From an uncultured Verrucomicrobiae bacterium (GTDB lineage: Bacteria; Verrucomicrobiota; Verrucomicrobiia; Limisphaerales; Palsa-1400): a stretch of 64,000 bases of DNA. The stretch lies in assembly GCA_963759415.1 (NCBI GenBank), contig CAVWZG010000001.1:111585-175584 (forward strand), written 5' to 3'. Made by a program: the position numbers and the translations under genes. Shown in pieces: positions 5,547 through 41,277 of this stretch (within the stretch, counting starts at the first letter, position 1; each line of letters starts with the position of its first letter). A model generated the notes under the pieces. It was given only the letters and a program-made list of their open reading frames with translations, made no database searches and had not been told where the DNA came from.

Positions 5547-6827
5547 ATGAGTTTAAATATCCCCGTGGACAAAGAGAACGCCCCTCCCATTCTTATCGTG
5601 GACGACGAGGAGATCGTGCTGGTGGCCCTCCGCGACACCTTGTTGCGCGAGGGTTACAACGTGGTCGCCTCGCCTCACGCCGTCCATGCCTTGAGCGTGC
5701 TCAAGCAGCAGAATTTTGCGGTCGTCATCACCGATCAGCAGATGCCGATGGTCTCGGGCCTGGAATTCCTGGCCCAGGTGCGCGAGATCCAGCCCGATGC
5801 CACCCGCATCCTCATCACCGCCGTTCTGAGCCTGAGCACGGTCATCGACGCCATTAACAAGGGGGAAATTTACCGGTTCATTGTCAAGCCGTGGTTGCGC
5901 GAGGAATTGCTGGCCACCGTCAAAAATGCCGTGCAGCGGCACGATTTGATTACCAGGAACGCCCGCTTGCAAGCCGCCACCCAGTCCATGAACCTGCAAC
6001 TCAAGGAGTTGAATGGCGCCTTGGAGGCCCAGGTGGCGCGCGTGGCCGAGCAAAACGCGCAACTGTTGGAATTCGCCCGCAGCCAGGAGGAAAACCTGCG
6101 CCACTCCGTTGAATTGTGCGTCCAAACCATGCGCACTTTCTATCCCACCATCGGCAACCAGGCCCGGCGGGTGGCCGCCCTGTGCCAATCCATGGCCGCC
6201 GGCTCCGAGTTGTCCCCCACCCAAAAGCAAACTCTCGAAATCAGCGGTTGCATCTACGACATCGGCCTGGTCGGCGTGCCGCGGCGATTGATCAAGCGAT
6301 GGCAGGAGACACCCGACGAATTAAGCGAGGCGGAATGGACGTTGATCCATCAGCATCCCCTATTGGGCCAGGAACTGGCGGCCTTCGTCCGCGACCTCAA
6401 AGCCGTCGGGCCGACCATTCGCGGACACCACGAACGTTTTGACGGCACGGGCTATCCCGACCGGCTGCACGGGGAGGACATCCCGTGGCTGGCGCGATTG
6501 CTGGCCGTGGCGGTGGCCTACGCGGAAAGCAACCTGGAGCCTAAAGCGGCGACCCAGATGATCAGCCAGGGCAGCGCCACGGCGTTTGATCCTGAAGCCG
6601 TGCGGATCTTTCTGCGCACGGTGCCCAAGGCGGTGGTTCCGGGCAAACAGCGGGTAGTGCCGCTGTCGGACTTGCGTCCGGGCATGATCCTGGCCGAAGG
6701 CATCTACAGCGAGAACGGGATGCTCCTGATCCCCGACGGCCAGCGTTTGACGGCCACCTATATCGACAAGCTGCTCAACTACAATCGCATCAATCCCATT
6801 TCGCAATCGCTCCTGGTGTATTGTTAG
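5547..6827 (+). CDS. Response regulator with HD-GYP output domain (RpfG-type c-di-GMP phosphodiesterase)
   Basis: Receiver motifs ILIVDDEE...VVITDQQMPMVSG...FIVKPW, and the HD-GYP signature HHERFDGTGYPDRL. I chose the ATG at 5547, 8 nt after the kinase stop. The listed ORF starts at a TTG at 5523 that overlaps the kinase. Confidence 0.85.
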   Translation: MSLNIPVDKENAPPILIVDDEEIVLVALRDTLLREGYNVVASPHAVHALSVLKQQNFAVVITDQQMPMVSGLEFLAQVREIQPDATRILITAVLSLSTVIDAINKGEIYRFIVKPWLREELLATVKNAVQRHDLITRNARLQAATQSMNLQLKELNGALEAQVARVAEQNAQLLEFARSQEENLRHSVELCVQTMRTFYPTIGNQARRVAALCQSMAAGSELSPTQKQTLEISGCIYDIGLVGVPRRLIKRWQETPDELSEAEWTLIHQHPLLGQELAAFVRDLKAVGPTIRGHHERFDGTGYPDRLHGEDIPWLARLLAVAVAYAESNLEPKAATQMISQGSATAFDPEAVRIFLRTVPKAVVPGKQRVVPLSDLRPGMILAEGIYSENGMLLIPDGQRLTATYIDKLLNYNRINPISQSLLVYC

Positions 6828-6870
6828 ATTCTTACCATTGAAATCCCGTCGGATTATCTCTCAGATTTCT

Positions 6871-6901
6871 CATCTGTGTTAATCTGTGTCCATCTGTGGC
6901 T
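6871..6901. repeat. Dispersed intergenic motif with three ATCTGTG cores spaced 10 nt apart (copy 1 of 2)
   Basis: catctgtgttaatctgtgtccatctgtggct here, versus aatctgtgttaatctgtgtcaatctgtggct at 54507..54537. Confidence 0.8.
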
Positions 6902-6989
6902 AAAATTTCAAATATCTTTGGCTAGGCCTCATTTTCCGGGTTGACGTTTGACTCGGCTCGCCGCAAGGTCTTATCGCTTTGTCGTAGAG

Positions 6990-9158
6990 ATGAAAACCGT
7001 TTTATTCGTTTGCACCGGGAATATTTGCCGCAGCCCGATGGCCGAGGGTCTCTTCCGCCACGCCACGCGTGGACGGACGGATTGCCGGGTCATGTCGGCG
7101 GGGGTCGGCGCACTGGAAGGGCAGCCGCCCAGCCCCCATGCCGTGCGCGCCCTCAAAGAATTGGGCATCGATATTTCCCAGCAGCGCAGCCGCATGCTCA
7201 CCTCCGAATTGGTGGATGAAGCCGATTACATCTTCGGCATGACCCACAGCCACGTCGATTCGGTCAACCTGCTTTTTCCGCAGGCGGCGGAGAAGATGTT
7301 TCTACTGCGCGAGTTTGACGAAACGTTGGACGAATTCGAGAAGGACATCAGCGATCCCATTGGCGGCTCTTACGAGACCTACGCTTATTGCCGGGACCAG
7401 ATCGAACAAGGCATTTTTTCCATGCTTAACTTCATTGAACAAACATCCGAAGGCCAGTCGGCCCCCGAAACGGCGGCCAAGTGCCGCCTCGCCCTGGGCA
7501 GCGATCACGCCGGGTTCCAACTCAAGGAAACACTCAAGAATTATTTGGAGGGCGCCCATGCCGCGGTGACGGACTTGGGGAGCAACTCGGCCGAGATGTG
7601 CGATTACACGGATTACGCCCAGGCGGTGGGCGAGGCGGTGACGGCGGGCCGCGCTGATTTTGGCCTGTTGATTTGCGCCACGGGCGTTGGCATGAGCATG
7701 GCGGCCAACAAGGTGGCCGGCATCCGCGCCGCCCTGGCACGGGACGAACACACAGCCGCCCTGTCGCGCCAGCATAACAACGCCAACGTGCTCTGTTTGG
7801 GCGCCGCCAGCACCCCGCCCGAAGAGGCCAAGAAGATTCTGGACGCTTTTCTCGCCGCCCAATTTGAAGGCGGACGCCACGCGCAGCGTGTCAGCAAAAT
7901 GGAACCGCCCTCAACGCCTCTCTCCCGGCGGCTGCAAACGGTTGATCCGGAAATCGCCGGCGCCATCTTCCTGGAACGGCAGCGGCAGCAGGAAAACATC
8001 GAGCTGATTGCCAGCGAAAATTTTGTCAGCGCGGCCGTGATGGAGGCGCAAGGGTCAGTGCTGACCAACAAATACGCCGAAGGGTATCCGGGCAAACGTT
8101 GGTACGGCGGCTGTGAAAACGTGGACGCCGCCGAACGTCTGGCCATTGAGCGGGCGAAGAAGATTTTCGGCGCCGAACACGCCAACGTTCAGCCCCATTC
8201 CGGCAGCCAGGCCAACATGGCCGTCTATTTTGCGGTCCTCAAACCCGGCGAAAAGATGCTGACCATGGACCTCACCCACGGCGGCCATCTCACGCACGGC
8301 TACAAGGTCAATTTTTCCGGCCGTTTTTTCGAGATCGTCCATTACGGCGTCAGCAAAGAGGACGAAAGAATTGACTACGACCAGTTGCAGAAACTGGCCG
8401 AGGAGCACCGCCCGCGCATGATCACCGTGGGCGCCAGCGCCTATCCGCGCATCATTGATTTTGAGCGCATGGGCCAGATCGCCCGCTCGGTGGGCGCTTA
8501 TTTGCTGGCCGACATCGCCCACATCGCGGGGTTGGTCGCCGCCGGCCTGCATCCCAGCCCGGTGCCGGACGCGGATTTTGTGACCACCACCACGCACAAG
8601 ACCTTGCGCGGGCCGCGCGGCGGATTGATCCTGTGCAAGGAGAAATACGCCAAGGAAATCGATTCGCAGGTCTTTCCGGGCATCCAAGGCGGCCCGTTGA
8701 TGCATGTCATCGCGGCCAAGGCGGTTTGTTTCCACGAAGCGTTGCAACCGTCCTTCCTGGCCTATCAACAGCAGATTATCAACAACGCCAAGGCCCTGGC
8801 CGAGGGCATGATTCGCAATCATTTCCGGCTGGTCAGCGGCGGCACGGACAACCACCTGATGCTGGTGGACGTGGGCGGACGTGGATTGACCGGCAAGGAA
8901 TGCCAGGGAGCCCTGGACGAGGCCGGAATTACAGTCAATAAGAACACCATTCCCTTCGAAACCCGCTCCCCCTTCCAGGCCAGCGGCATCCGCCTCGGCA
9001 CCCCGGCCGTCACCACCCGTGGCATGAAAGAAGCCGAAATGGCCGCCATTGCCGACATGATTAGCGAAGTTCTGTTGGACATTAAGAACCTTGACGCGGC
9101 GCACAAGGTCAGACATCGTGTCCGGGAATTAACGGCAAAATATCCTTTGCCGCAGTAA
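6990..9158 (+). CDS. Single ORF fusing LMW protein (Tyr/Arg) phosphatase, ribose-5-phosphate isomerase B and serine hydroxymethyltransferase
   Basis: No in-frame stop across three recognisable modules. (1) P-loop [17 protein letters not shown] plus DISDPIGG. (2) [12 protein letters not shown]...[22 protein letters not shown]...NANVLCLGA...[10 protein letters not shown]. (3) [30 protein letters not shown]...HSGSQAN...[14 protein letters not shown]. The start is taken at ATG 6990 (MKTVLFVC). There is an internal ATG at 7899, just before the SHMT module. Confidence 0.85.
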
Positions 9159-9278: not shown

Positions 9279-10748
9279 ATGCCAAAGCCCGCTGCCAAGA
9301 AAGCCCCCCGCAAAAGCGCCCGGAGCGCCGCGCCCAAGCCTGTCCCCATCGCCCCGGCGGAAGCCCCGGAAACGCTTTCCGTGCCCCAAGCCCCGCCCCC
9401 GCCCGTGGAAATGAAGCTGGAGCCGCCGACCTGCGCCGTCGAAGCGCGCGAGGAAGCCGGGCCGCCCCGCGTTTCCACCGTGCCTTCCGGCAAGCCGGTC
9501 AACATCGCCGCTCTGCAAGCCATCGCCATGCCCGAACTCAATCAGATGGCCCGGGGCATGGGCATCGAGAACTTCGGCACCATGCGCAAGCACGAGCTGA
9601 TCTTCCAAATCCTGCAAAAGAACGCCGAACGGGCCGGGGTGCTCTTTTCCGAAGGGGTGCTGGAAATCCTGCCCGAGGGCTTCGGTTTCCTGCGCTCGCG
9701 CAGCTTCAATTACCTGCCCTGCCCGGAGGACATTTACGTCTCCCCCTCGCAAATCCGCCGTTTCGACCTGCAAACCGGCAACCTGATCGCCGGCCAGATT
9801 CGCCCGCCCAAGGACAAGGAACGCTTCTTCGCCCTGCTCAAAGTCGAGGGGGTCGATACGGAAGACCCGGACAAGGCCAAGGACAAGACGCATTTCGACA
9901 ATCTGACGCCGCTCTTTCCGACCAAACGCTACCTGCTGGAGACGACGCCCGATGAATTATCCACGCGGGTGCTGGACCTGGTCTGCCCCATCGGCAAAGG
10001 CACGCGCGGCCTGATCGTGGCCCCGCCGCGCACGGGCAAGACGGTCCTGATGCAGAAGCTGGCCAACGCCATTCTCAAGAACAATCCCGAGGCTTACCTG
10101 TTCATCCTGCTCATCGACGAGCGCCCGGAGGAAGTCACCGACATGGAACGCTCCTGCCGCGGGGCCGAGGTCATCAGTTCCACCTTTGACGAGCCGCCGG
10201 AACGGCACGTGCAGGTGGCCGAGATGGTCATTGAAAAAGCCAAGCGCATGATCGAGCACAAGCGCGACGCGGTCATCCTGCTGGACTCGATCACCCGCCT
10301 GGCGCGGGCCTACAACACCGTCCAGCCGCATTCGGGCAAAATCCTCTCCGGGGGCGTGGACGCCAACGCCCTGCACAAGCCCAAGCGATTTTTTGGCGCG
10401 GCCCGCAACATCGAGGAAGGCGGTTCGCTGACCATCATCGCCACCGCCTTGATTGACACCGGCTCGCGCATGGACGAGGTGATCTTCGAGGAATTCAAAG
10501 GCACCGGCAACATGGAGGTAAACCTGGACCGGCACCTGGTGGACCGGCGCATCTTCCCCTCCATCAACGTGGAGCTATCGGGCACGCGCAAGGAGGAATT
10601 GCTCTACCATCCCGACGAGTACAACAAAGTAGTCCTGTTGCGCCGTGCATTGACAGGCGTGCCGCCAGTGGAGGCGATGGAACTGCTGCTGGGCAAACTA
10701 AAGAAAACAGGCAGCAACATCGAGTTCCTCCTCGGCATGGCGGTGTAA
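9279..10748 (+). CDS. rho: Transcription termination factor Rho with a ~73-aa Pro/Ala/Lys-rich N-terminal extension
   Basis: Rho_N-like [29 protein letters not shown], the RNA-binding segment [15 protein letters not shown], and Walker [18 protein letters not shown] with [10 protein letters not shown]. The start is chosen at ATG 9279. The listed ORF starts at a TTG at 9195. Confidence 0.92.
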
Positions 10749-23392: not shown

Positions 23393-24073
23393 ATGACCGA
23401 TTCCGCCCCCAGTTACACTGTGCAATGGGCCGATCCCCTGCCCCATCTATCCGCCGATTGGGATGACCCGGCCTGGAAGGCCGCCGAGACGGCCGAGTTG
23501 CAAAGTTTCCGCCCGGAAAGCAGCGCACACCATCCGCGCACGAGGCTTCGGCTGCTTCACGGCGCAGGAGGCCTGCGCGGCCTGTTCCAAGTCCGCGACC
23601 AATTCGTGCGCTCCATCCGAACGCGCTACATGGACGAAGTTTGGAAGGACAGTTGCGTCGAAATCTTTCTTCAACCCAGGCCTGACGCCGGCTATTTCAA
23701 CCTGGAAATGAACGCGGGCGGCGCGCATCTGTGCAGTTATATCCAGGATCCGGAGCGCGTGCCGGGCGGATTCAAACGATTCACTCGCCTGCCGGCTGAG
23801 ATGGGCGAAAGGATTGAAGTGCGGTCTTCCTTGCCCAGAGTCGTTGACCCGGAGATCGCGGAGCCGGTGACGTGGCAATTGAATTTTTACGCGCCGTGGG
23901 AAGTCCTGGGACATTATTCCGGGTCGCTTGGCCAGGTGCGCGGCCAGCGCTGGCGCGGCAATTTTTACAAATGCGCGGACGAAAGCTCGCATCCGCACTG
24001 GGTTTCCTGGGCGCCGATCGATCTTTTAAATTTCCATATCCCGCGTTGTTTTGGCACACTCTGCTTTCAATGA
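23393..24073 (+). CDS. Carbohydrate-binding family 9-like (DOMON-type) domain protein
   Basis: 226-aa product from ATG 23393 with WDDPAWKAAE...LLHGAGGLRGLFQVRD...EVWKDSCVEIFLQP...YFNLEMNAGG. The part of listed ORF 22922..24073 upstream of 23393 overlaps the ThuA gene and is rejected. Confidence 0.6.
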   Translation: MTDSAPSYTVQWADPLPHLSADWDDPAWKAAETAELQSFRPESSAHHPRTRLRLLHGAGGLRGLFQVRDQFVRSIRTRYMDEVWKDSCVEIFLQPRPDAGYFNLEMNAGGAHLCSYIQDPERVPGGFKRFTRLPAEMGERIEVRSSLPRVVDPEIAEPVTWQLNFYAPWEVLGHYSGSLGQVRGQRWRGNFYKCADESSHPHWVSWAPIDLLNFHIPRCFGTLCFQ

Positions 24074-25164
24074 AGACACGCACACATCTGATTTGGTTTC
24101 TGACCCTGGTCTGCCTTTGCCTGTTGCCGCTGCCCGGGCGCGCCGCCGAACCGACGCTGGATATTTATTGGATTGATGTCGAAGGCGGCGGCGGCACTTT
24201 GATCATCACCCCGGCCGGGGAATCCATTCTTATTGACACCGGCTGGCCCGGGGCTTCCAGCGCGGCCCGCATCCACGAGGCCGCCACCAATGCCGGGGTG
24301 AGCCGGATTGATTACCTGATCCTGACCCACTTTCATCTTGACCATTTCGGCGGCGCGGCCCCGCTGGCCAAGCTGATGCCCATTGGGACGGTCCTGGACA
24401 ACGGCATCCCCGAGCATGACCCGGACGGCAGGAACGACGAGCGGTTTCTCGCCTCGATCAAACCTTACCGGGAATTCCCGGCAAAGCGGCGCATGTTGAT
24501 CCAACCCGGCGAGACGCTGCCTTTGAAACAAGGCGGCTCGGCCATACCGTTGAGCCTCCGGTTCATGGGCACGCGCAGGCATTTCGCGCATCCGCCAGGC
24601 CTGGGTGGCCTGAACGCCCTCTGCGCCGGCGCGACGCAAAAGCAGCCGGACACGAGCGATAACGCCAACAGCGCGGTTTTGCTGGTGCAATTGGGATCGT
24701 TCAAATTCTACGATGGGGCCGACTTGACCTGGAACATGGAAGGCGAAATGGTCTGCCCGACCAATTCCATCGGGCAGGTGGATGTCTATCAAGTCGATCA
24801 CCACGGCGTGGACGTGAGCAATAATCCCCTGCTCATTCGCAGCCTGGCGCCCACCGTCAGCGTCATGAACAACGGCGCGCGCAAAGGCGGCGCCAAGGCG
24901 ACCCTGGCCACCTTGCGCAGTGTCTCTTCCATCCAAACGATGTATCAAATCCATCGCGACCCGCGCGGCGGAGCGGAGTTCAACACCGACGACCAATACA
25001 TCGCCAACCTGGAGGAAAAATGCGAGGGCCACTACATCAAATGCTCAGTGGACTCTTCCGGCAAGAGCTACACCATCAGCATTCCGGCCAAAGGCTTTGC
25101 CAAGACCTACCAAACCCGCACGGCGGAAGCGGGGAAAACAATGGCTAGTGGCCAGCAAAAGTGA
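24070..25164 (+). CDS. Secreted MBL-fold metallo-hydrolase
   Basis: The ATG at 24070 overlaps the upstream stop (ATGA). Signal peptide MKTRTHLIWFLTLVCLCLLPLPGRA and metal motif DYLILTHFHLDHFGG, with QVDHHG later. Confidence 0.8.
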   Translation: MKTRTHLIWFLTLVCLCLLPLPGRAAEPTLDIYWIDVEGGGGTLIITPAGESILIDTGWPGASSAARIHEAATNAGVSRIDYLILTHFHLDHFGGAAPLAKLMPIGTVLDNGIPEHDPDGRNDERFLASIKPYREFPAKRRMLIQPGETLPLKQGGSAIPLSLRFMGTRRHFAHPPGLGGLNALCAGATQKQPDTSDNANSAVLLVQLGSFKFYDGADLTWNMEGEMVCPTNSIGQVDVYQVDHHGVDVSNNPLLIRSLAPTVSVMNNGARKGGAKATLATLRSVSSIQTMYQIHRDPRGGAEFNTDDQYIANLEEKCEGHYIKCSVDSSGKSYTISIPAKGFAKTYQTRTAEAGKTMASGQQK

Positions 25165-26115: not shown

Positions 26116-26121
26116 GGGACT

Positions 26122-26152
26122 AAGGCTAAAGGCTGAAGGCTGAAGGCTAAAG
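26122..26152. repeat. 7-nt microsatellite AAGGCTR, about 4.4 copies
   Basis: aaggcta aaggctg aaggctg aaggcta aag, in the divergent intergenic region between the recombinase and the ATPase gene. A 2.3-copy version lies at 39629..39644. Confidence 0.9.
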
Positions 26153-26223
26153 TTAATTATTGAATATGGAATTCGATATGGCTTAATGCGACCTCGTTAG
26201 GTTCGGCGGTCGTTTGAGCCAAC

Positions 26224-27504
26224 ATGGAAAAATTAAGCATTAACAATTTCGGGGGCCTCAAGTCGGTTGAATTGGAGATACGCCCTGTGACCGGCTTCAT
26301 CGGCCCGGAGGGATCCGGCAAGAGTGTCATCGCCAAGCTGTTGTATTTTTTCCGCCAAATTGCCTCGCGTTTGCCAACCGCAATCCGTTATCAGGAAAGT
26401 CCCCAGTATAAGGTGGAATGTCGCAAGCGTTTTAACCGATACTTCCCAATTGAAAATACCGGCATTGGTGATTTCGAAATCACGTACTCGAACAATAAGG
26501 AATGGGTTCGCGTTACTTTTGCCGCTCGGAAGGACGCTGGAATGCCAAGCCTTGATTTGGAGTGGAGCAGCATCTATGACATGATGTTGGAGAAAATTGC
26601 CCACCCGAGAGATAAGATGCCGGCTCTTGGGGACAACGTGACCGAACTCACCACCAGAATCCTTGCGTTTCGTGAAGAAGTCGAACCTGACATGGTGCGA
26701 GCGTTGGGGACTAGGGCAATTTTCGATCAGATTTTTATCCCGGCAGGACGTGCCTTTTTCTCACAGGTTCAGAACACTGTCTTTACGCAGTTTGCGGAAG
26801 GGGAAAGCCCTGAGCCTTTCATGGCCGAGTTTGGTGCATTGCTTGAACAAAGCAAGTCCATTCTGGATTCAGTCGGACTCTTCAACGTAACCTCCGGCGA
26901 AATGTCAGTGCCTCATGCTTTAGGGCCTAGTTTTGACGAAATACTACACGCACGGTTGTTGCGAATTAGGAATCAAGATTTCCTCGAATTTGCAGACGGT
27001 CGTCGCGTCAAGCTCGCGCAAGCGTCCTCCGGCCAACAGGAAGCTTTGCCATTGCTCCTTTTGTTGGCATCGTTGATGTTGCCTGGAAATTGGCGTGGCC
27101 GCGTTTTGTATATCGAAGAGCCAGAGGCACATCTTTTTCCATCCACGCAGAAACTCATCATGGAATCGATGGTTAAGTTTTTTAGGGCGTGGGGTGGGAG
27201 AATGGGCCTTGTGCTGACAACCCATAGCCCTTACATCCTCACGTCTATCAACAACCTACTTCAAGCCGGGAAACTTTACGCCGCTGCGACAAAGAAAGAG
27301 GCTGACAGGCTTGCCCGGATCATTCCCGTCACGCGTACATTTAACCCGGATGAGGTCGGTTTCTACGCACTTGAGAATGGGAATGCCAAGTCGATCATGG
27401 ATCCACAAATGGGGCTGATAGATGCCGATATCATTGACCAAGTTTCAAACGATATCGCCATCCAGTTCGATCAATTGCTCTCGGAGGGGAATGAAAAGTC
27501 CTGA
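26224..27504 (+). CDS. ABC/SMC-like ATPase of the AAA_21/AAA_15 type, with no fused nuclease domain
   Basis: 426-aa ORF with Walker A GPEGSGKS (aa 27-34), signature-like ASSGQQ (267-272), Walker B plus the EEPEAHL motif VLYIEEPEAHLFP (294-306), and H-loop TTHSPY (332-337). It is AT-rich relative to its flanks. Confidence 0.8.
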   Translation: MEKLSINNFGGLKSVELEIRPVTGFIGPEGSGKSVIAKLLYFFRQIASRLPTAIRYQESPQYKVECRKRFNRYFPIENTGIGDFEITYSNNKEWVRVTFAARKDAGMPSLDLEWSSIYDMMLEKIAHPRDKMPALGDNVTELTTRILAFREEVEPDMVRALGTRAIFDQIFIPAGRAFFSQVQNTVFTQFAEGESPEPFMAEFGALLEQSKSILDSVGLFNVTSGEMSVPHALGPSFDEILHARLLRIRNQDFLEFADGRRVKLAQASSGQQEALPLLLLLASLMLPGNWRGRVLYIEEPEAHLFPSTQKLIMESMVKFFRAWGGRMGLVLTTHSPYILTSINNLLQAGKLYAAATKKEADRLARIIPVTRTFNPDEVGFYALENGNAKSIMDPQMGLIDADIIDQVSNDIAIQFDQLLSEGNEKS

Positions 27505-27922
27505 CGGCCGGGAGTGCAGCGACTTCCATCGGCACAAGAAGATTGCCCTCAGCGGCAAGAAAACCACAAAGCTTTACCTCCTCAATCCCACGGAACGCCG
27601 GGTGGAGCAGATTGTGGTGGATGGTTGTGCGATCATGGAAGGAAGACGTTGTGATTGGCTTGTCCGAGTGGACGACGCAATGTCCAAGGAAGAAATTTAC
27701 GTGGAACTGAAAGCTTCGAAGGTTGACTACGCGGTCGAACAATTGCGGGCAACCATTGAAAAGCTCTCCGCCGACCACGCGAGCTTGCTCAAACGATGCT
27801 TCGTTGTCTTTAACCGGAACCCGATGACCGGAACGGATACCCAGAAATACAAACTCCAATTCCGTCAAACGTTCAACTCCGGTTTCCGGCTGGTCAAAGA
27901 CAAGACAGAGGTTCGGCTTTAA
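27491..27922 (+). CDS. 143-aa hypothetical protein, putative PD-(D/E)xK-fold nuclease
   Basis: The ATG at 27491 lies 14 nt inside the ATPase 3' end and is preceded by GGAGGGG. The motif arrangement is D55 (RCDWLVRV)-x16-E72-x-K74 (IYVELKASKVDYAVEQLRATI). The alternative upstream ATG at 27422 would overlap the ATPase by 83 nt. Confidence 0.5.
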   Translation: MKSPDGRECSDFHRHKKIALSGKKTTKLYLLNPTERRVEQIVVDGCAIMEGRRCDWLVRVDDAMSKEEIYVELKASKVDYAVEQLRATIEKLSADHASLLKRCFVVFNRNPMTGTDTQKYKLQFRQTFNSGFRLVKDKTEVRL

Positions 27923-29049
27923 GCCTTCCCCAATTCGCCCAGCACAAGGCGCAGGAAGGCGACGTTGTCGATTTGCACGTAGTTCATCGCGCCGCCCATG
28001 CGGGAGTAGCTCTTGCAAAAACGCAGATAATAGGCCGGATTGTCCCTGGGCGGCTCGCCCCGCGTCCAATCCCAATGCCCGCCGTCCTGCAAATCCACCA
28101 CGTAAAAGCTGTGCCCTTTGACAATGGGCCGGCCGGCTTGCAATCTGAAATTGTTGATGCAACTGAGGCTCTTTTCGAAAACCTGCGGCCCCATGATGGC
28201 CGAACCGACCGACAGCACGACCCCGCCATCCAGGTTCTCCACCGCGCCGCCAAAGATCCGAAAATCCATTTCCCCCGCCCGGCCAATGGCAGCGCCGTTG
28301 AACATGGGATGATTGGTGATAATGTCGTAGCCGATGCCGGGATGGATGGTCATCGGCACGTTCAAGCTGAAACTTTGCGCCAGCACGCAGGTGGCTTTGT
28401 GCGGATGCGCCACGGTGTGGCGTCCGGCGGCCAGATGATGCACGCGCATGGCCTGCAAAAGCTCGGCCCGCGCCGGCGAGAGCGGGTTGGAAGGCGCGCT
28501 TCGCAACGCCGCTTCAAGCGATTCCACCGACGGCAAAGTGACGCCATCCTGGGCGACAAATTTTCCGAGGGCGCGGCCAAAGCCGTCCCCTTCCAACGCG
28601 CCGGCCAGCAACGCCAGTTGAAAGTTTCGCCCCGTTTCCTCCCAGCTTCCGAAAGTGCCGGTGGCGACGTTTTCTTTGACGCTTTCAGTCGAGATGCCCT
28701 GGTAGGCTAATTCCCAGTCATGAATCGAGCCGGCGCCGTTGGTGGCCAGATGGGTCACCCAATTCTTTTGCATCAAGCGAATGAGGAGCGTGGCCCCGCC
28801 GTTCTTGATCAGATGCGCGCCGTAAATAAGCATGACCGAGGCTTTTTTGGCGCGAGCCTGCGCGATGTCGCGGGCGCATTGCCGGACCAGGGAAAGATTC
28901 GGCTCCTGGCAGGGCGGAGGCGGAGAGTTGGGGTCGGCCAAAATGTCCTCCAACCGCGCCAGGCTATGGCGTTGGGCCAGCGGCAGGACTTTCAGCTTGG
29001 TCATATCGATGCGTGATGGCATATCAAATTTAAAAAAGCAAACTCGCAA
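27919..29049 (-). CDS. Deoxyhypusine synthase-like (DHS-like NAD-binding fold) protein, tentative
   Basis: 376-aa ORF. The segment MLIYGAHLIKNGGATLLIRLMQKNWVTHLATNGAGSIHDWE resembles the DHS-family nucleotide-binding core as I remember it. More likely starts are ATG 29022 or 29004. Confidence 0.4.
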   Translation of the reverse strand: MRVCFFKFDMPSRIDMTKLKVLPLAQRHSLARLEDILADPNSPPPPCQEPNLSLVRQCARDIAQARAKKASVMLIYGAHLIKNGGATLLIRLMQKNWVTHLATNGAGSIHDWELAYQGISTESVKENVATGTFGSWEETGRNFQLALLAGALEGDGFGRALGKFVAQDGVTLPSVESLEAALRSAPSNPLSPARAELLQAMRVHHLAAGRHTVAHPHKATCVLAQSFSLNVPMTIHPGIGYDIITNHPMFNGAAIGRAGEMDFRIFGGAVENLDGGVVLSVGSAIMGPQVFEKSLSCINNFRLQAGRPIVKGHSFYVVDLQDGGHWDWTRGEPPRDNPAYYLRFCKSYSRMGGAMNYVQIDNVAFLRLVLGELGKA

Positions 29050-38148: not shown

Positions 38149-38254
38149 ACGCTTGGCTTGGTGGTGGAGGTGAACATTCTTTGACGTGTTGCACGCGCGC
38201 GCACGGGGCTTTATGCTTCCGGGCGATGAAAATCGCGACAGACCTCGCCTTGGC

Positions 38255-39643
38255 ATGAATTTCGTGCCGTCAGAATTGGAGGAGATTCTCCGACTTACGC
38301 CTGCGTTGCAGCGGGCCTTTCTGGTCGGCGGGTGCGTGCGCGATGGGCTGGCGGGTCTGCCACTGGGGAAAGATTTTGATGTCGAGGTCTTTGGTCTCGA
38401 TTACGAACAACTCATTGCGGCGCTGGCGCGCTGGGGAAGGACCGATTTGGTGGGGCGCTCTTTTGGAGTGGTGAAACTTTCCACCCGGAGCGGACACAGC
38501 TACGATTTCACGCTGCCCCGCAAGGACTCCAAGGTTGGCCCCGGCCATAAGGGATTCGACGTGGCGTTCGATCCGGCCATTTCGCTGCCCGAGGCGGCGG
38601 CGCGAAGGGATTTTACCATCAACTCCGTCATGTACGATCCCCGCGCGCACCAGGTGCTCGATTTTTTCGGCGGCGTGGCGGATATGAAGGCCGGGATTCT
38701 GCGGCACACCAGCGCGGCGTTCAGCGAAGACCCGTTGCGGGTGCTGCGCGGGATGCAGTTCGCGGGGCGTTTCGAGTTGCGCGCGGCGCCGGAAACGGTG
38801 GCCTTGGCGCGCGGCATGAAGGGCAGCTACACGCAATTGGCCGTCGAACGCGTGCGTGAGGAATGGTTCAAATGGGCGCAACGCAGCCGCCTGCCTTCGG
38901 CCGGCCTGCGCTTTTTGGCCGAGACGGAATGGATCGATCATTTCCCGGAAATCAAGGCGCTGATGGGCACGCCGCAGGAACCGGACTGGCACCCGGAAGG
39001 GGACGTTTTCACGCACACCGGCCACTGTTGCGACGCACTGACGCGCCTGCACGCCTGGCGTGACGCGGACGCGGAGTCCAAAATAGCGTACATGCTGGCT
39101 GTGTTGGCGCACGACTTTGGCAAACCAGCCACCACGCATCGCGCCATCAAGGATGGCCGGGAGCGCATCATCTCGCCCGGACACGAAGGGGCCGGAGTGG
39201 AACCAACGCGAGTTTTTTTGGAGCGGCTGCGCACCCCGCTGGCCATCGCGCAACGGGTCATTCCGCTGGTGCAAAACCATCTGTTTCATCTGGAAACCAT
39301 CTCCGACCGCGCCGTGCGGCGTCTGGCCCGGCGTCTGGCGCCGGAGAACATCGAGGGCCTTTGCCTGGTGATGACGGCCGACAGCATGGGCCGTCCGCCG
39401 CGTCCGGCGGAGGTGCCGGAGAACGTCAAGACACTTTTGGCGCGGGCGCACGAACTGGCGGTCCGGCGAAAGCCGCCATCCCCGCTGTTGCAAGGCCGGC
39501 ATTTGCTGCAAATAGGCGTGGCGCCCGGCCCGCGCATGGGAGACATACTTGCCAAGGCCTACGAGGCGCAATTGGAAGGCGTCTTCGGCGACTTGGAAGG
39601 CGCATTGCGTTGGGCCACCGAAGAGGTTAAGGCTAAAGGCTAA
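38255..39643 (+). CDS. cca: CCA-adding tRNA nucleotidyltransferase with HD domain
   Basis: AFLVGGCVRDGLAGLPLGKDFDVEVFG, RRDFTINSVMYD and the HD region LAHDFGKP. The start is chosen at ATG 38255. Confidence 0.85.
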   Translation: MNFVPSELEEILRLTPALQRAFLVGGCVRDGLAGLPLGKDFDVEVFGLDYEQLIAALARWGRTDLVGRSFGVVKLSTRSGHSYDFTLPRKDSKVGPGHKGFDVAFDPAISLPEAAARRDFTINSVMYDPRAHQVLDFFGGVADMKAGILRHTSAAFSEDPLRVLRGMQFAGRFELRAAPETVALARGMKGSYTQLAVERVREEWFKWAQRSRLPSAGLRFLAETEWIDHFPEIKALMGTPQEPDWHPEGDVFTHTGHCCDALTRLHAWRDADAESKIAYMLAVLAHDFGKPATTHRAIKDGRERIISPGHEGAGVEPTRVFLERLRTPLAIAQRVIPLVQNHLFHLETISDRAVRRLARRLAPENIEGLCLVMTADSMGRPPRPAEVPENVKTLLARAHELAVRRKPPSPLLQGRHLLQIGVAPGPRMGDILAKAYEAQLEGVFGDLEGALRWATEEVKAKG

Positions 39644-39645
39644 AC

Positions 39646-41277
39646 ATGAAGCGGTTTATATGGCAGGCAATGGTCATCGGTTTGCTGGCTCTCCGTCTGC
39701 CGGCCCAAACTTCGTTGGAGTTCTTTACCAATCAGGCCAATGCGCTCTTGCAACCGGCCTTCGGTTTCGGAGTCGCGAGTATCCCGGTGTATTCGGTCAC
39801 CAATTCTTCCATCGCCTACAACGCGTCTCTTCATTTCCTGCTGCAATCGGCGGCGAATGCTTACGACACGACGACCCCGGCCACCGATCCCCCGTCCGTT
39901 TTCCGGCCCCTCTTCGGCTGGTCGGGCAATACTCTTTTGATTGTCGGTTACACGAATGTGACGACGGATTTCTACACGCAAATCGGACAGGGATTCAAAA
40001 TGCTGACGGATCCGACGATTTGTTCCAACGACAACGTTTGGGGCATTCCGTGGGTGGTGGGAGCCAAGAACAATCCGCCCGCGTTCAACGAGTACTGCTA
40101 TTCCACCGCCGTGCTCGCTGAACGCAAGCTGCTGTTCATTCGCGCGACAGGTTCCAACGGGCAACCCGACGTCAACCGGCCGCCAGCTTACACGAACCAG
40201 TTTCTTGAGATGTCGATTTCCAATCAGTTTGGAGTCGAGGCTTGGAATTTCGCGCGGTCGAACTATACGAACGGCATGACCATCGTCGCCTCGAATCAGG
40301 TCTCGATCACGATCACCAACAACTACGGTTTTGGGACAAACTACGTGTTCAACGACAGTACTAATTGGATCCTGAATTCATGGCCAGGTTGGACGGGGCG
40401 GGCTTTCGACCGCAGTTTTCTTATCCCTATATTTACCAACGTCGTTTCATTGCCGCCATCATATTGGTCCGAGTCCACTGGACGGTTCGTTGGCTTTAGC
40501 TCCGGAATCATCACCTCAAATCCATTTTTGGCGAGCGACATGACACAGAGGGGATGGCCGGAGCACAATTGGATCTTAAATATCACCAATTACGTCATGT
40601 ACGGCCTTATCGATAACAACAGTGGAGCGGTTTTGGACTTTGTTAATTTGGGCGGCTTTGGCAGTTCTCTCCACATCACACAACTGCTTACCAACCAACC
40701 AGGACTTTTTGGGGCGACAAATTACAATCCTGCATGGGCAACCAACGGCGCCACCGATGCGCCAAATTCTCCCATGTCGTCCGGCGTCCTCTATCAGATC
40801 GCGACCGGGAAGCAAACAAATCAAACTTTCTCCAATGATCTCAATGGACTCCAGCCGGGCACGCTGGGTTCGACTTTCGGCGCTCCCTACGCTGCAACGA
40901 GTGAAATCGTGCAGAACTGCGCGTGGCAAACTGTCAATCCCTTGGTGCATTACACAGTGGAAGACCTGCCTGGAACGGAGAACGAAGTGTTCCTCTCTTT
41001 GCATGGCGCCCCCATTTCAATTGCCAGTCTTGGAAGAATCAATGAGGACTACAATTCCGGCGCGGTCCAAAAACTTGGCTTGGGATGGAGTGCGGGAACT
41101 CCTCAATTGAATTTCTCCGGCGTTAACGATTTGCCTTACACGATCTGGGCTTCGGCGGACTTGCTAAACTGGAGCCAGATCGGCATCGCTTCTCAACCAG
41201 AGGCCGGGTCTTTTCAGTTCAACGACCTGCCCGCAACGAACTATCCCGCGCGCTTTTATCAAGTGCGCCTGCCATAG
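39646..41277 (+). CDS. Secreted hypothetical protein
   Basis: 543-aa ORF with signal peptide MKRFIWQAMVIGLLALRLPAQT. It is N/S/T-rich, AT-richer than its neighbours in sampled lines, and ends in the motif YPARFYQVRLP. I recognise no family. Confidence 0.6.
   Translation: MKRFIWQAMVIGLLALRLPAQTSLEFFTNQANALLQPAFGFGVASIPVYSVTNSSIAYNASLHFLLQSAANAYDTTTPATDPPSVFRPLFGWSGNTLLIVGYTNVTTDFYTQIGQGFKMLTDPTICSNDNVWGIPWVVGAKNNPPAFNEYCYSTAVLAERKLLFIRATGSNGQPDVNRPPAYTNQFLEMSISNQFGVEAWNFARSNYTNGMTIVASNQVSITITNNYGFGTNYVFNDSTNWILNSWPGWTGRAFDRSFLIPIFTNVVSLPPSYWSESTGRFVGFSSGIITSNPFLASDMTQRGWPEHNWILNITNYVMYGLIDNNSGAVLDFVNLGGFGSSLHITQLLTNQPGLFGATNYNPAWATNGATDAPNSPMSSGVLYQIATGKQTNQTFSNDLNGLQPGTLGSTFGAPYAATSEIVQNCAWQTVNPLVHYTVEDLPGTENEVFLSLHGAPISIASLGRINEDYNSGAVQKLGLGWSAGTPQLNFSGVNDLPYTIWASADLLNWSQIGIASQPEAGSFQFNDLPATNYPARFYQVRLP

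Follow-up and report, generated by a model that had tools for sequence, protein, structure and literature searches.

A probable WonAB-family anti-phage operon in a Verrucomicrobiota chromosome

Introduction

Does a short segment of low guanine-plus-cytosine (GC) content in a Verrucomicrobiota chromosome encode a new kind of anti-phage defence or a further member of a known one? The question is raised by a 64,000-nucleotide (nt) stretch of DNA from an uncultured Verrucomicrobiae bacterium of the Limisphaerales (Palsa-1400; GenBank assembly GCA_963759415.1, contig CAVWZG010000001.1, positions 111,585 to 175,584 of the forward strand), hereafter the window, in whose coordinates positions are given unless another locus is named. 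At 26116..27922 the window carries two overlapping open reading frames, ORF1 and ORF2. An earlier sequence-only reading took them for a two-gene defence or abortive-infection module, made of an ABC/OLD-type ATPase and a small PD-(D/E)xK-like nuclease, that could not be assigned to any named system and was possibly new. The functional half of this proposal is borne out by homology to WonAB, by the residues that the homologues share and by the pairing of the two genes. The segment is probably (at a rough probability of 0.8) a chromosomal Verrucomicrobiota operon of two genes that belongs to the WonAB family and acts against phages by abortive infection.

WonAB, from the Vibrio cholerae WASA-1 prophage, has been validated by experiment as an abortive-infection system (Nat Microbiol 2025, PMC12137116). 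It consists of an OLD-type ABC ATPase, WonA, and a small PD-(D/E)xK-variant protein, WonB. Both genes are necessary and sufficient for defence in V. cholerae, and the system gives protection from ICP1 and from the Vequintavirinae members of the BASEL phage collection (PMC12137116). That paper assigns WonAB to an operon type called "OLD-ABC ATPase + novel REase", credits this type to an earlier (2020) in silico survey and finds it in 0.96% of genomes.

Results

Two overlapping genes at the GC minimum of the window

The segment is organised as follows.

26224..27504, + strand: ORF1 (wonA-like), 426 amino acids (aa), an OLD/PtuA-type ABC ATPase
27491..27922, + strand: ORF2 (wonB-like), 143 aa, a predicted PD-(D/E)xK-variant (restriction-endonuclease-fold) nuclease
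27483..27504, + strand: translational coupling region, with GGAGGGG at 27483-27489, the ORF2 ATG at 27491-27493 and the ORF1 stop TGA at 27502-27504, a 14-nt overlap

The layout agrees with the sequence-only reading, which had described two same-strand ORFs overlapping by 14 nt with the second ATG inside the 3' end of ORF1. Read from the sequence, a Shine-Dalgarno-like run (GGAGGGG) stands ahead of that ATG, and the 143-aa start of ORF2 is confirmed by its relatives, since nearly all full-length homologues have 141-150 aa and most have exactly 143. The low GC content that the same reading had estimated by hand is also real. The ORF pair stands at 0.504 against 0.596 for the whole window and is the global GC minimum among its 1700-nt windows (mean 0.595, standard deviation 0.023). 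In 300-nt windows the values are 0.48-0.54 within 26150..27950 and 0.57-0.66 in the flanks, and GC at third codon positions (GC3) is 0.56 in ORF1 and 0.64 in ORF2 versus 0.77 in the upstream recombinase gene, xerC, and 0.74 in the downstream gene of the GSU2086 family.

The two edges are likewise as described. On the right, the stop codons of ORF2 and of the convergent GSU2086-family gene overlap in a common TTAA at 27919..27922, and the C-terminus of the GSU2086-family protein is intact by comparison with relatives that lack the pair. On the left, a 108-nt divergent region separates ORF1 from xerC and holds both an AAGGCTR repeat and the sequence TTGAAT-N16-CTTAAT. No tRNA genes or Rfam families were found in the region.

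ORF1 and ORF2 are full-length homologues of WonA and WonB

We compared the pair with the WonA and WonB sequences of Supplementary Table 4 of PMC12137116. By BLASTP, ORF1 is 30% identical to V. cholerae WonA over 420 columns (E value 1e-48) and ORF2 is 28% identical to V. cholerae WonB over 123 columns (E 4e-15). Aligned by hhalign, the ORF2 family profile and V. cholerae WonB reach a probability of 99.7% (E 9.7e-26, 133 columns), and ORF2 also matches the WonB hits of that table from Escherichia coli E24377A (35% identity, E 2e-20) and Geobacillus (34%, E 6e-13). Defence is lost in WonA K34, R182, E300 and H333 mutants and in a WonB K71 mutant (PMC12137116); these residues align with K33, R176, E299 and H334 of ORF1 and with K74 of ORF2. 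Alignment over such lengths speaks against a resemblance limited to generic ABC motifs.

A second line of evidence comes from PADLOC-DB. The best match of ORF1 is PDC-M29A (8.6e-31), with the family-specific C-terminal extension included, and ORF2 matches PDC-M29B (5.1e-7), a modest score of 28 bits in a comparison of which the PADLOC per-model cut-offs formed no part. PDC-M29B is matched by 40 of 45 diverse ORF2 relatives. Of the V. cholerae proteins themselves, WonB has PDC-M29B as its best match and WonA has PDC-M29A as its second-best. In the supplement of Payne et al. (bioRxiv 10.1101/2024.01.29.577857), PDC-M29 is cassette CAS_00123 (FAM_00005>>FAM_02872), in a row carrying the number 110. 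It belongs to a set of 145 "phage defence candidates", all untested, whose genes were found within BREX, DISARM and type I restriction-modification loci. We found no mention of the name PDC-M29 in the paper texts, and it appears in the supplement row only.

Because homology extends over the full length of both proteins, the essential residues align exactly and the PADLOC matches are held in common, we conclude from sequence comparison that WonAB, PDC-M29 and the ORF1-ORF2 pair are one family. All sequence-testable features of WonAB/PDC-M29 are present in the pair: the ATPase, a B protein with the equivalent of K71 and same-strand adjacency. These matches also bear on the idea of a new, unnamed defence module, in which an AAA_15/21 ATPase would be joined to a nuclease of ~140 aa unlike any catalogued system. 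That idea draws on the lack of a Pfam or NCBIfam family for ORF2 and of any structure match at E <= 1e-3, but it is made highly improbable by the PDC-M29A and PDC-M29B matches and by full-length homology to WonA and WonB. The claim of an unassignable, possibly new system is thus refuted on the terms that the sequence-only reading had set for itself, both proteins matching a named system.

A complete ABC ATPase with a conserved C-terminal extension

The sequence-only reading had credited ORF1 with a full ABC/SMC motif set and no attached effector, and we find the same. The motifs are Walker A GPEGSGKS (K33), signature ASSGQQ at 267-272, Walker B/D-loop IEEPEAHLF (E299) and H-loop TTHSPY (H334), and a Q-loop-like IPAGR contains R176; across 32 homologues of 33-70% identity, their key residues do not vary. 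Pfam gives AAA_15 (2.5e-26) and AAA_21 (9e-20) and nothing else, with no effector domain. One detail needs correction: E298 had been put forward for mutation, and the catalytic Walker-B glutamate is E299, the equivalent of WonA E300.

In the AlphaFold2 model of ORF1 (predicted local distance difference test score, pLDDT, 83.7), both a long coiled coil and a fused nuclease are absent. The C-terminal extension, at about 345-426, is modelled as helix and beta-strand, and many residues of 343-419 are invariant in the 32 homologues. Foldseek places PtuA (of Septu and of retrons), Rad50, SMC heads and GajA at the top of the matches, the best being PtuA 8eea (E 1.9e-10, template-modelling (TM) score ~0.4).

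A small predicted nuclease with a near-invariant motif

Searches of ORF2 against Pfam and NCBIfam returned no family. A profile search of 1.84 billion cluster representatives recovered relatives in 1758 clusters at E <= 1e-3; among the matches listed, nearly all are stand-alone proteins of ~130-170 aa, and the shorter ones resemble fragments. We measured conservation in 138 cluster representatives with 25-47% identity to ORF2. The predicted active-site residues are almost without variation (D44 138/138, D55 137/138, E72 138/138, K74 138/138, Q84 137/138), which supports the D55/E72/K74 motif picked out in the sequence-only reading, and N32 is kept in 136 of the 138. In the AlphaFold2 model (pLDDT 85.5, predicted TM score 0.84), D55 comes right ahead of a strand, E72-x-K74 closes the next strand and Q84 lies on the helix after it, a modelled layout that matches the arrangement expected of a PD-(D/E)xK core.

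Foldseek searches of the ORF2 model against PDB and BFVD gave nothing at E <= 1e-3. Most of the weak matches are restriction-endonuclease-fold proteins (Mus81, FokI, BamHI, HamA, NucS, XPF and Can2, and further a T7 endonuclease I-like protein, ERCC4, UL24 and Rpb5-N), with clamp-loader subunits and other unrelated proteins mixed among them. Since these matches are weak, the case for a nuclease fold in ORF2 depends chiefly on the conserved motif and on the homology with WonB. A profile search of PDB sequences with a diverse ORF2 alignment returned Rai1 only, at a non-significant E of 0.47 and aligned on D..ELK..Q. We take Rai1, a decapping nuclease, to be a PD-(D/E)xK-fold enzyme, and regard this match as suggestive only.

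Three cysteines stand out in the same 138 representatives.

~27515-27517, 27626-27628 and 27650-27652, + strand: ORF2 cysteines C9, C46 and C54

C9 is conserved in 135/138 (98%), C46 in 133/138 (96%) and C54 in 138/138 (100%); V. cholerae WonB, the only member characterised so far, has no cysteines equivalent to C9 and C46. C54 lies directly beside the catalytic D55, and a fourth conserved ligand is not evident among the representatives (C103 57%, H80 56%). The three cysteines might make up a metal or redox site by which the nuclease is stabilised or gated, an idea that we consider rather doubtful. If it were true, the common form of WonB would have a regulatory or structural layer beyond the V. 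cholerae work, possibly with another trigger or substrate.

The two genes are paired across six phyla

The locus sample comprised ORF2 relatives from metagenomes and from 61 named genomes or metagenome-assembled genomes, with 69 loci other than the window examined for pairing. In 69/69 an ORF1 homologue lies directly upstream of the ORF2 homologue on the same strand. The pair is thus adjacent in unrelated genomes of six phyla (Verrucomicrobiota, Cyanobacteria, Planctomycetota, Acidobacteriota, Bacteroidota and Firmicutes), as a functional module should be according to the sequence-only reading. Hosts of ORF2 relatives include Verrucomicrobiota (Limisphaerales), Planctomycetaceae, Acidobacteriota and Lachnospiraceae. 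The cyanobacterial hosts are many Microcoleus as well as Moorena, Anabaena and Halomicronema, and those in the Bacteroidota are Hymenobacter, Alistipes and Bacteroidales. The gene junction is a 14-nt overlap in Verrucomicrobiota loci and ranges from an 8-nt overlap to a 19-nt gap in other intact loci (cyanobacterial, planctomycete and Bacteroidota). Across loci, identity to the window copies correlates between the two proteins (Spearman 0.51, p 4e-4).

The pair is GC-poorer than its flanks in 64/67 loci, by a mean of 9.4 points, in hosts whose GC content spans 36% to 68%. Together with the GC minimum in the window, this deficit upholds the earlier view of the segment as compositionally foreign.

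Some copies are decaying. The ATPase gene is split, matching in two pieces, in L001 and L011 (~6706-8014), L010 (8717-10008) and L048 (7887-9165), and in L077 (11765-12121) it is truncated at the 5' end so that the last 119 codons are left. In all of these the decayed ATPase copy adjoins an intact nuclease gene, which deserves notice given that WonB on its own is toxic in V. cholerae.

These observations allow two alternatives to be weighed. The first is a housekeeping pair for DNA repair or chromosome maintenance, in which a Rad50/SbcC/RecN-like ATPase works with a nuclease partner. Foldseek does give Rad50, SMC and RecN heads for ORF1 and Mus81, XPF and NucS for ORF2; against this, ORF1 is modelled without a long coiled coil, the pair is absent from most close relatives (see below), its GC content is atypical in almost every host, its genomic position varies and frameshifted copies exist. 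Its homologue WonAB, moreover, is a proven defence system (PMC12137116), and we consider a housekeeping role extremely unlikely.

The second alternative is a selfish, addiction or toxin-antitoxin-like cassette with ORF2 as toxin and ORF1 as its neutraliser, maintained by post-segregational killing and of no real anti-phage benefit to the host. WonB is toxic in excess of WonA and unstable in V. cholerae (PMC12137116), the cassette is a small, GC-poor unit of patchy occurrence that usually stands alone between housekeeping genes, and Pfam labels AAA_21 a "putative AbiEii toxin, Type IV TA system" domain. However, homologous WonAB protects against phages and needs both genes to do so, and the cassette is almost absent from the replicons searched: we found a single weak ORF2 match among 72,556 plasmids and another among 50,697 phage records, and neither a close ORF2 relative nor a match to the wonB quantitative PCR primer sequence in IMG/VR. 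Toxin-antitoxin behaviour and abortive infection are, in addition, not mutually exclusive. Purely selfish maintenance is therefore unlikely in our estimate, and a WonAB-type defence operon remains the preferred reading.

Of the two weak matches, the plasmid one (CP061010.1, 6702-7058; 27.7% identity, E 8e-4) is on an 18.8-kb mobilizable plasmid of the Muribaculaceae. The other (L155; MT838931.1, 3171-3536; 33% identity, E 1e-14) is on a scaffold, 4.7 kb long and unverified, that came from human faeces and is labelled "Bacteriophage sp."

The recombinase is a host neighbour

The gene order in the window is xylose-isomerase-like, ThuA, CBM9, MBL-fold, xerC, the pair, GSU2086, amidohydrolase, HPF and ParA. 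We compared 85 loci with a GSU2086 orthologue (64-83% identity), 46 of which have at least 2 kb of downstream sequence. The pair lies near GSU2086 in 3 of these 46 (L073, L074 and L077), and the closest relatives, L070-L072 and L076, are without it. This is the patchy presence among close relatives that the sequence-only reading had suggested checking for. The GC deficit of the pair is ~9 points in the three carriers as well.

In L074 the window order recurs (ThuA-CBM9-xerC, ATPase-nuclease, GSU2086), which places the acquisition before these two lineages separated. Between the two loci the flanking proteins are 80-83% identical (xerC 83%) and the pair 61-68%. A clean empty site, with xerC directly beside GSU2086 and no pair, was not found in the 85 related loci, where GSU2086 synteny is generally poor; for this reason the term insertion draws its support from composition and patchy presence and not from an empty allele. 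Of the MBL-fold gene that separates CBM9 from xerC in the window (23872..25164), L074 keeps only a remnant of the first 59 codons (9847-10023).

The sequence-only reading gave weight to the adjacent tyrosine recombinase, and a third alternative would make the pair the cargo of a mobile element that this XerC/D-type enzyme moves. The recombinase gene is indeed divergent and only 108 nt from the pair, and the xerC-pair-GSU2086 order recurs in L074. Elsewhere the association breaks down: a XerC-like gene occurs within 8-10 kb of the pair in 0/69 other loci, and in L073 the pair adjoins GSU2086 with a DUF1501 gene on its other side and xerC absent. The recombinase scores best as XerC (299.6 bits), has a host-like GC3 of 0.77 and is as similar to its L074 counterpart as the other flanking genes are, unlike the pair, and no direct or inverted repeats of note flank the cassette. 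The xerC recombinase is a coincidental host neighbour, and neither it nor the GSU2086-family gene is a component of the module; mobilisation by the recombinase is very unlikely, and the weight that it had been given is not supported.

Neighbours across loci are mostly housekeeping genes (methylmalonyl-CoA mutase, AcrB, GidA, catalase, Hsp70), with occasional defence genes (RhuM/PDC-S05, PDC-S23, MADS components, AbiL). The expectation of a setting in defence islands was not borne out by so few defence neighbours. Methylmalonyl-CoA mutase subunits make up 6 of the 60 scanned neighbour proteins and apparently come from the Hymenobacter loci L058, L064 and L069, where, judged by large upstream ORFs, they lie upstream of the pair; the cassette may have a fixed chromosomal position in Hymenobacter. 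Its GC deficit in these three loci is 12-19 points.

A conserved leader and a local repeat

Two features lie between xerC and ORF1.

26150..26223, + strand: upstream leader of ~75 nt travelling with the cassette, from an alignment of the upstream regions of 11 Verrucomicrobiota loci
26122..26152, no strand assigned: AAGGCTR heptanucleotide tandem repeat, 4.4 copies (Tandem Repeats Finder score 48), between the xerC start and the leader

In the window, the leader contains a possible promoter, TTGAAT-N16-CTTAAT at 26160..26187, followed by a conserved TTTGAGCCAAC just 5' of the ATG. A -10-like element is positionally conserved upstream in the 11 Verrucomicrobiota loci as GGCTTAAT, GACTAGAT or GGCTAAAT. 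The window, L005, L009-L011, L073 and L074 share the order (A/G)GTTGCGC, a ~17-nt spacer, a TAnnnT-like box, TTTGAGCCAAC and ATG. On the evidence of this alignment, the leader marks the left boundary of the mobile unit. The promoter guessed at 26160..26187 by the sequence-only reading receives some comparative support from the conserved -10-like element and was not called by a generic sigma-70 scan; sigma-70 and terminator scans of the region gave results no better than shuffled sequence. We infer a candidate promoter at this position.

The AAGGCTR repeat is absent at the orthologous junction of L074 and is probably not part of the module. A two-unit copy of the same heptamer lies elsewhere in the window at 39629..39642 (chance expectation 0.06 matches per window at one mismatch). 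It is carried by AAGGCTAAAGGCTA, the final codons of a PolyA_pol/HD-domain gene at 38186..39643 that possibly encodes a CCA-adding enzyme. Directly 3' of it, 39646..41277 (+ strand) is a 543-aa ORF without a Pfam match and with a hydrophobic, signal-peptide-like N-terminus. This ORF is the second low-GC stretch of the window, with 0.48-0.57 in 300-nt windows versus ~0.64 in the flanks.

Discussion

The ORF1-ORF2 pair displays homology to WonAB, conserved catalytic residues, strict pairing, tight coupling, a conserved ORF1 C-terminal extension and a foreign composition. How such a pair could act is suggested by the V. cholerae system. There, WonB is toxic only where it outnumbers WonA; Lon degrades it, it disappears once the WonA ATPase is inactivated, and a complex of WonB with the dimerised C-terminal extensions of WonA is predicted (PMC12137116). 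Activation of WonAB halts translation and leaves genomic DNA intact, and its authors suggest ribosomal or transfer RNA as the target (PMC12137116). By analogy, we envision a scenario in which ORF1 dimerises and its C-terminal extensions hold ORF2 in an inactive, stabilised state. Upon sensing of infection, the ATPase cycle of ORF1 would license or release the ORF2 nuclease, which could then shut down host translation, probably by cutting ribosomal or transfer RNA, and so abort the infection.

Several points weigh against this assignment. The experiments concern V. cholerae WonAB, and the window pair and its clade are known from sequence alone. Identity to the characterised proteins is only 28-30%, and the trigger and the nuclease substrate may therefore differ. 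The Foldseek matches of ORF2 are all weak (best E 0.015-0.026, TM score 0.3-0.4), and most neighbourhoods consist of housekeeping genes rather than defence islands. Finally, the searched portion of the supplementary workbook of PMC12137116 contains no term beginning with "Verrucomicrobi".

What had been an unassignable candidate nevertheless becomes a confident annotation as a WonAB-type abortive-infection system, and the validated WonAB family now reaches into the Verrucomicrobiota of soil and peat metagenomes. WonAB, PADLOC PDC-M29 and the "OLD-ABC ATPase + novel REase" operon, three entities that carry separate names, are linked with one another. The comparison also yields practical facts about the family, which is strictly paired, lies ~9 GC points below its host almost everywhere, usually stands alone among housekeeping genes and frequently decays. 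The window locus itself raises no new question, and the pair adds a member to a known, validated system rather than a new kind of defence. Diverse members of this sort are useful material for studies of the substrate of the WonAB nuclease and of the infection signal.

Comparison with known systems

Septu (PtuAB, including the retron PtuAB modules) similarly combines an ABC ATPase as scaffold or sensor with a separate small nuclease, and no solved structure is closer to ORF1 than PtuA. The Septu partner PtuB is an HNH nuclease, whereas ORF2 is predicted to be restriction-endonuclease-like, and the TM score of PtuA to ORF1 is only ~0.4. Septu was rejected, as ORF2 has no PtuB or HNH match at E <= 1 in PADLOC or Pfam.

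PARIS (AriAB), Gabija (GajAB) and the OLD nucleases are likewise built around an OLD-family ABC ATPase, whose Walker B/D-loop and H-loop variants are similar. The PADLOC AriA and GajA models do match ORF1, the AriA matches with profile lengths like those of the generic Pfam AAA_15 and AAA_21 (373 and 304 positions versus 374 and 304). These systems use a TOPRIM effector, either separate (AriB) or fused (GajA, OLD), and ORF1 and ORF2 have none. PARIS was rejected because ORF2 has no AriB, TOPRIM or DUF4435 match in PADLOC or Pfam, and Gabija and the OLD nucleases because a TOPRIM domain is absent from both proteins.

PD-T4-4, named as a system related to WonAB (PMC12137116), and HEC-02, validated as defence in the literature, pair an ABC ATPase with a NERD PD-(D/E)xK protein and have a similar operon layout with a PD-(D/E)xK-type partner. 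Their ATPase inserts and C-terminal extensions are unlike those of ORF1, and both were rejected, as ORF2 does not match PD-T4-4_B or HEC-02B at E <= 1; V. cholerae WonB has a faint PD-T4-4_B match (0.006).

The "OLD-ABC ATPase + novel REase" operon of the 2020 survey, as described in PMC12137116, has the same architecture and protein families as ORF1-ORF2 and was defined in silico. PDC-M29 agrees with the pair in having adjacent genes that match PDC-M29A and PDC-M29B, with the same architecture and protein families, and differs in its definition as an untested candidate.

WonAB of V. cholerae differs from the window pair in several respects. Identity is only 28-30%; the V. cholerae copy is on a prophage and the window copy is chromosomal, between housekeeping genes of a Verrucomicrobiota host; ORF2 has C9 and C46, as do ~96-98% of the representatives, and V. 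cholerae WonB does not; and the window genes overlap by 14 nt. Both systems are nonetheless two-gene operons in which an OLD-type ABC ATPase of ~430 aa, extended at its C-terminus and lacking a fused nuclease, is followed by a PD-(D/E)xK variant of ~140 aa. Both proteins align over their full length with ORF1 and ORF2, and ORF2 and WonB share the same best PADLOC model.

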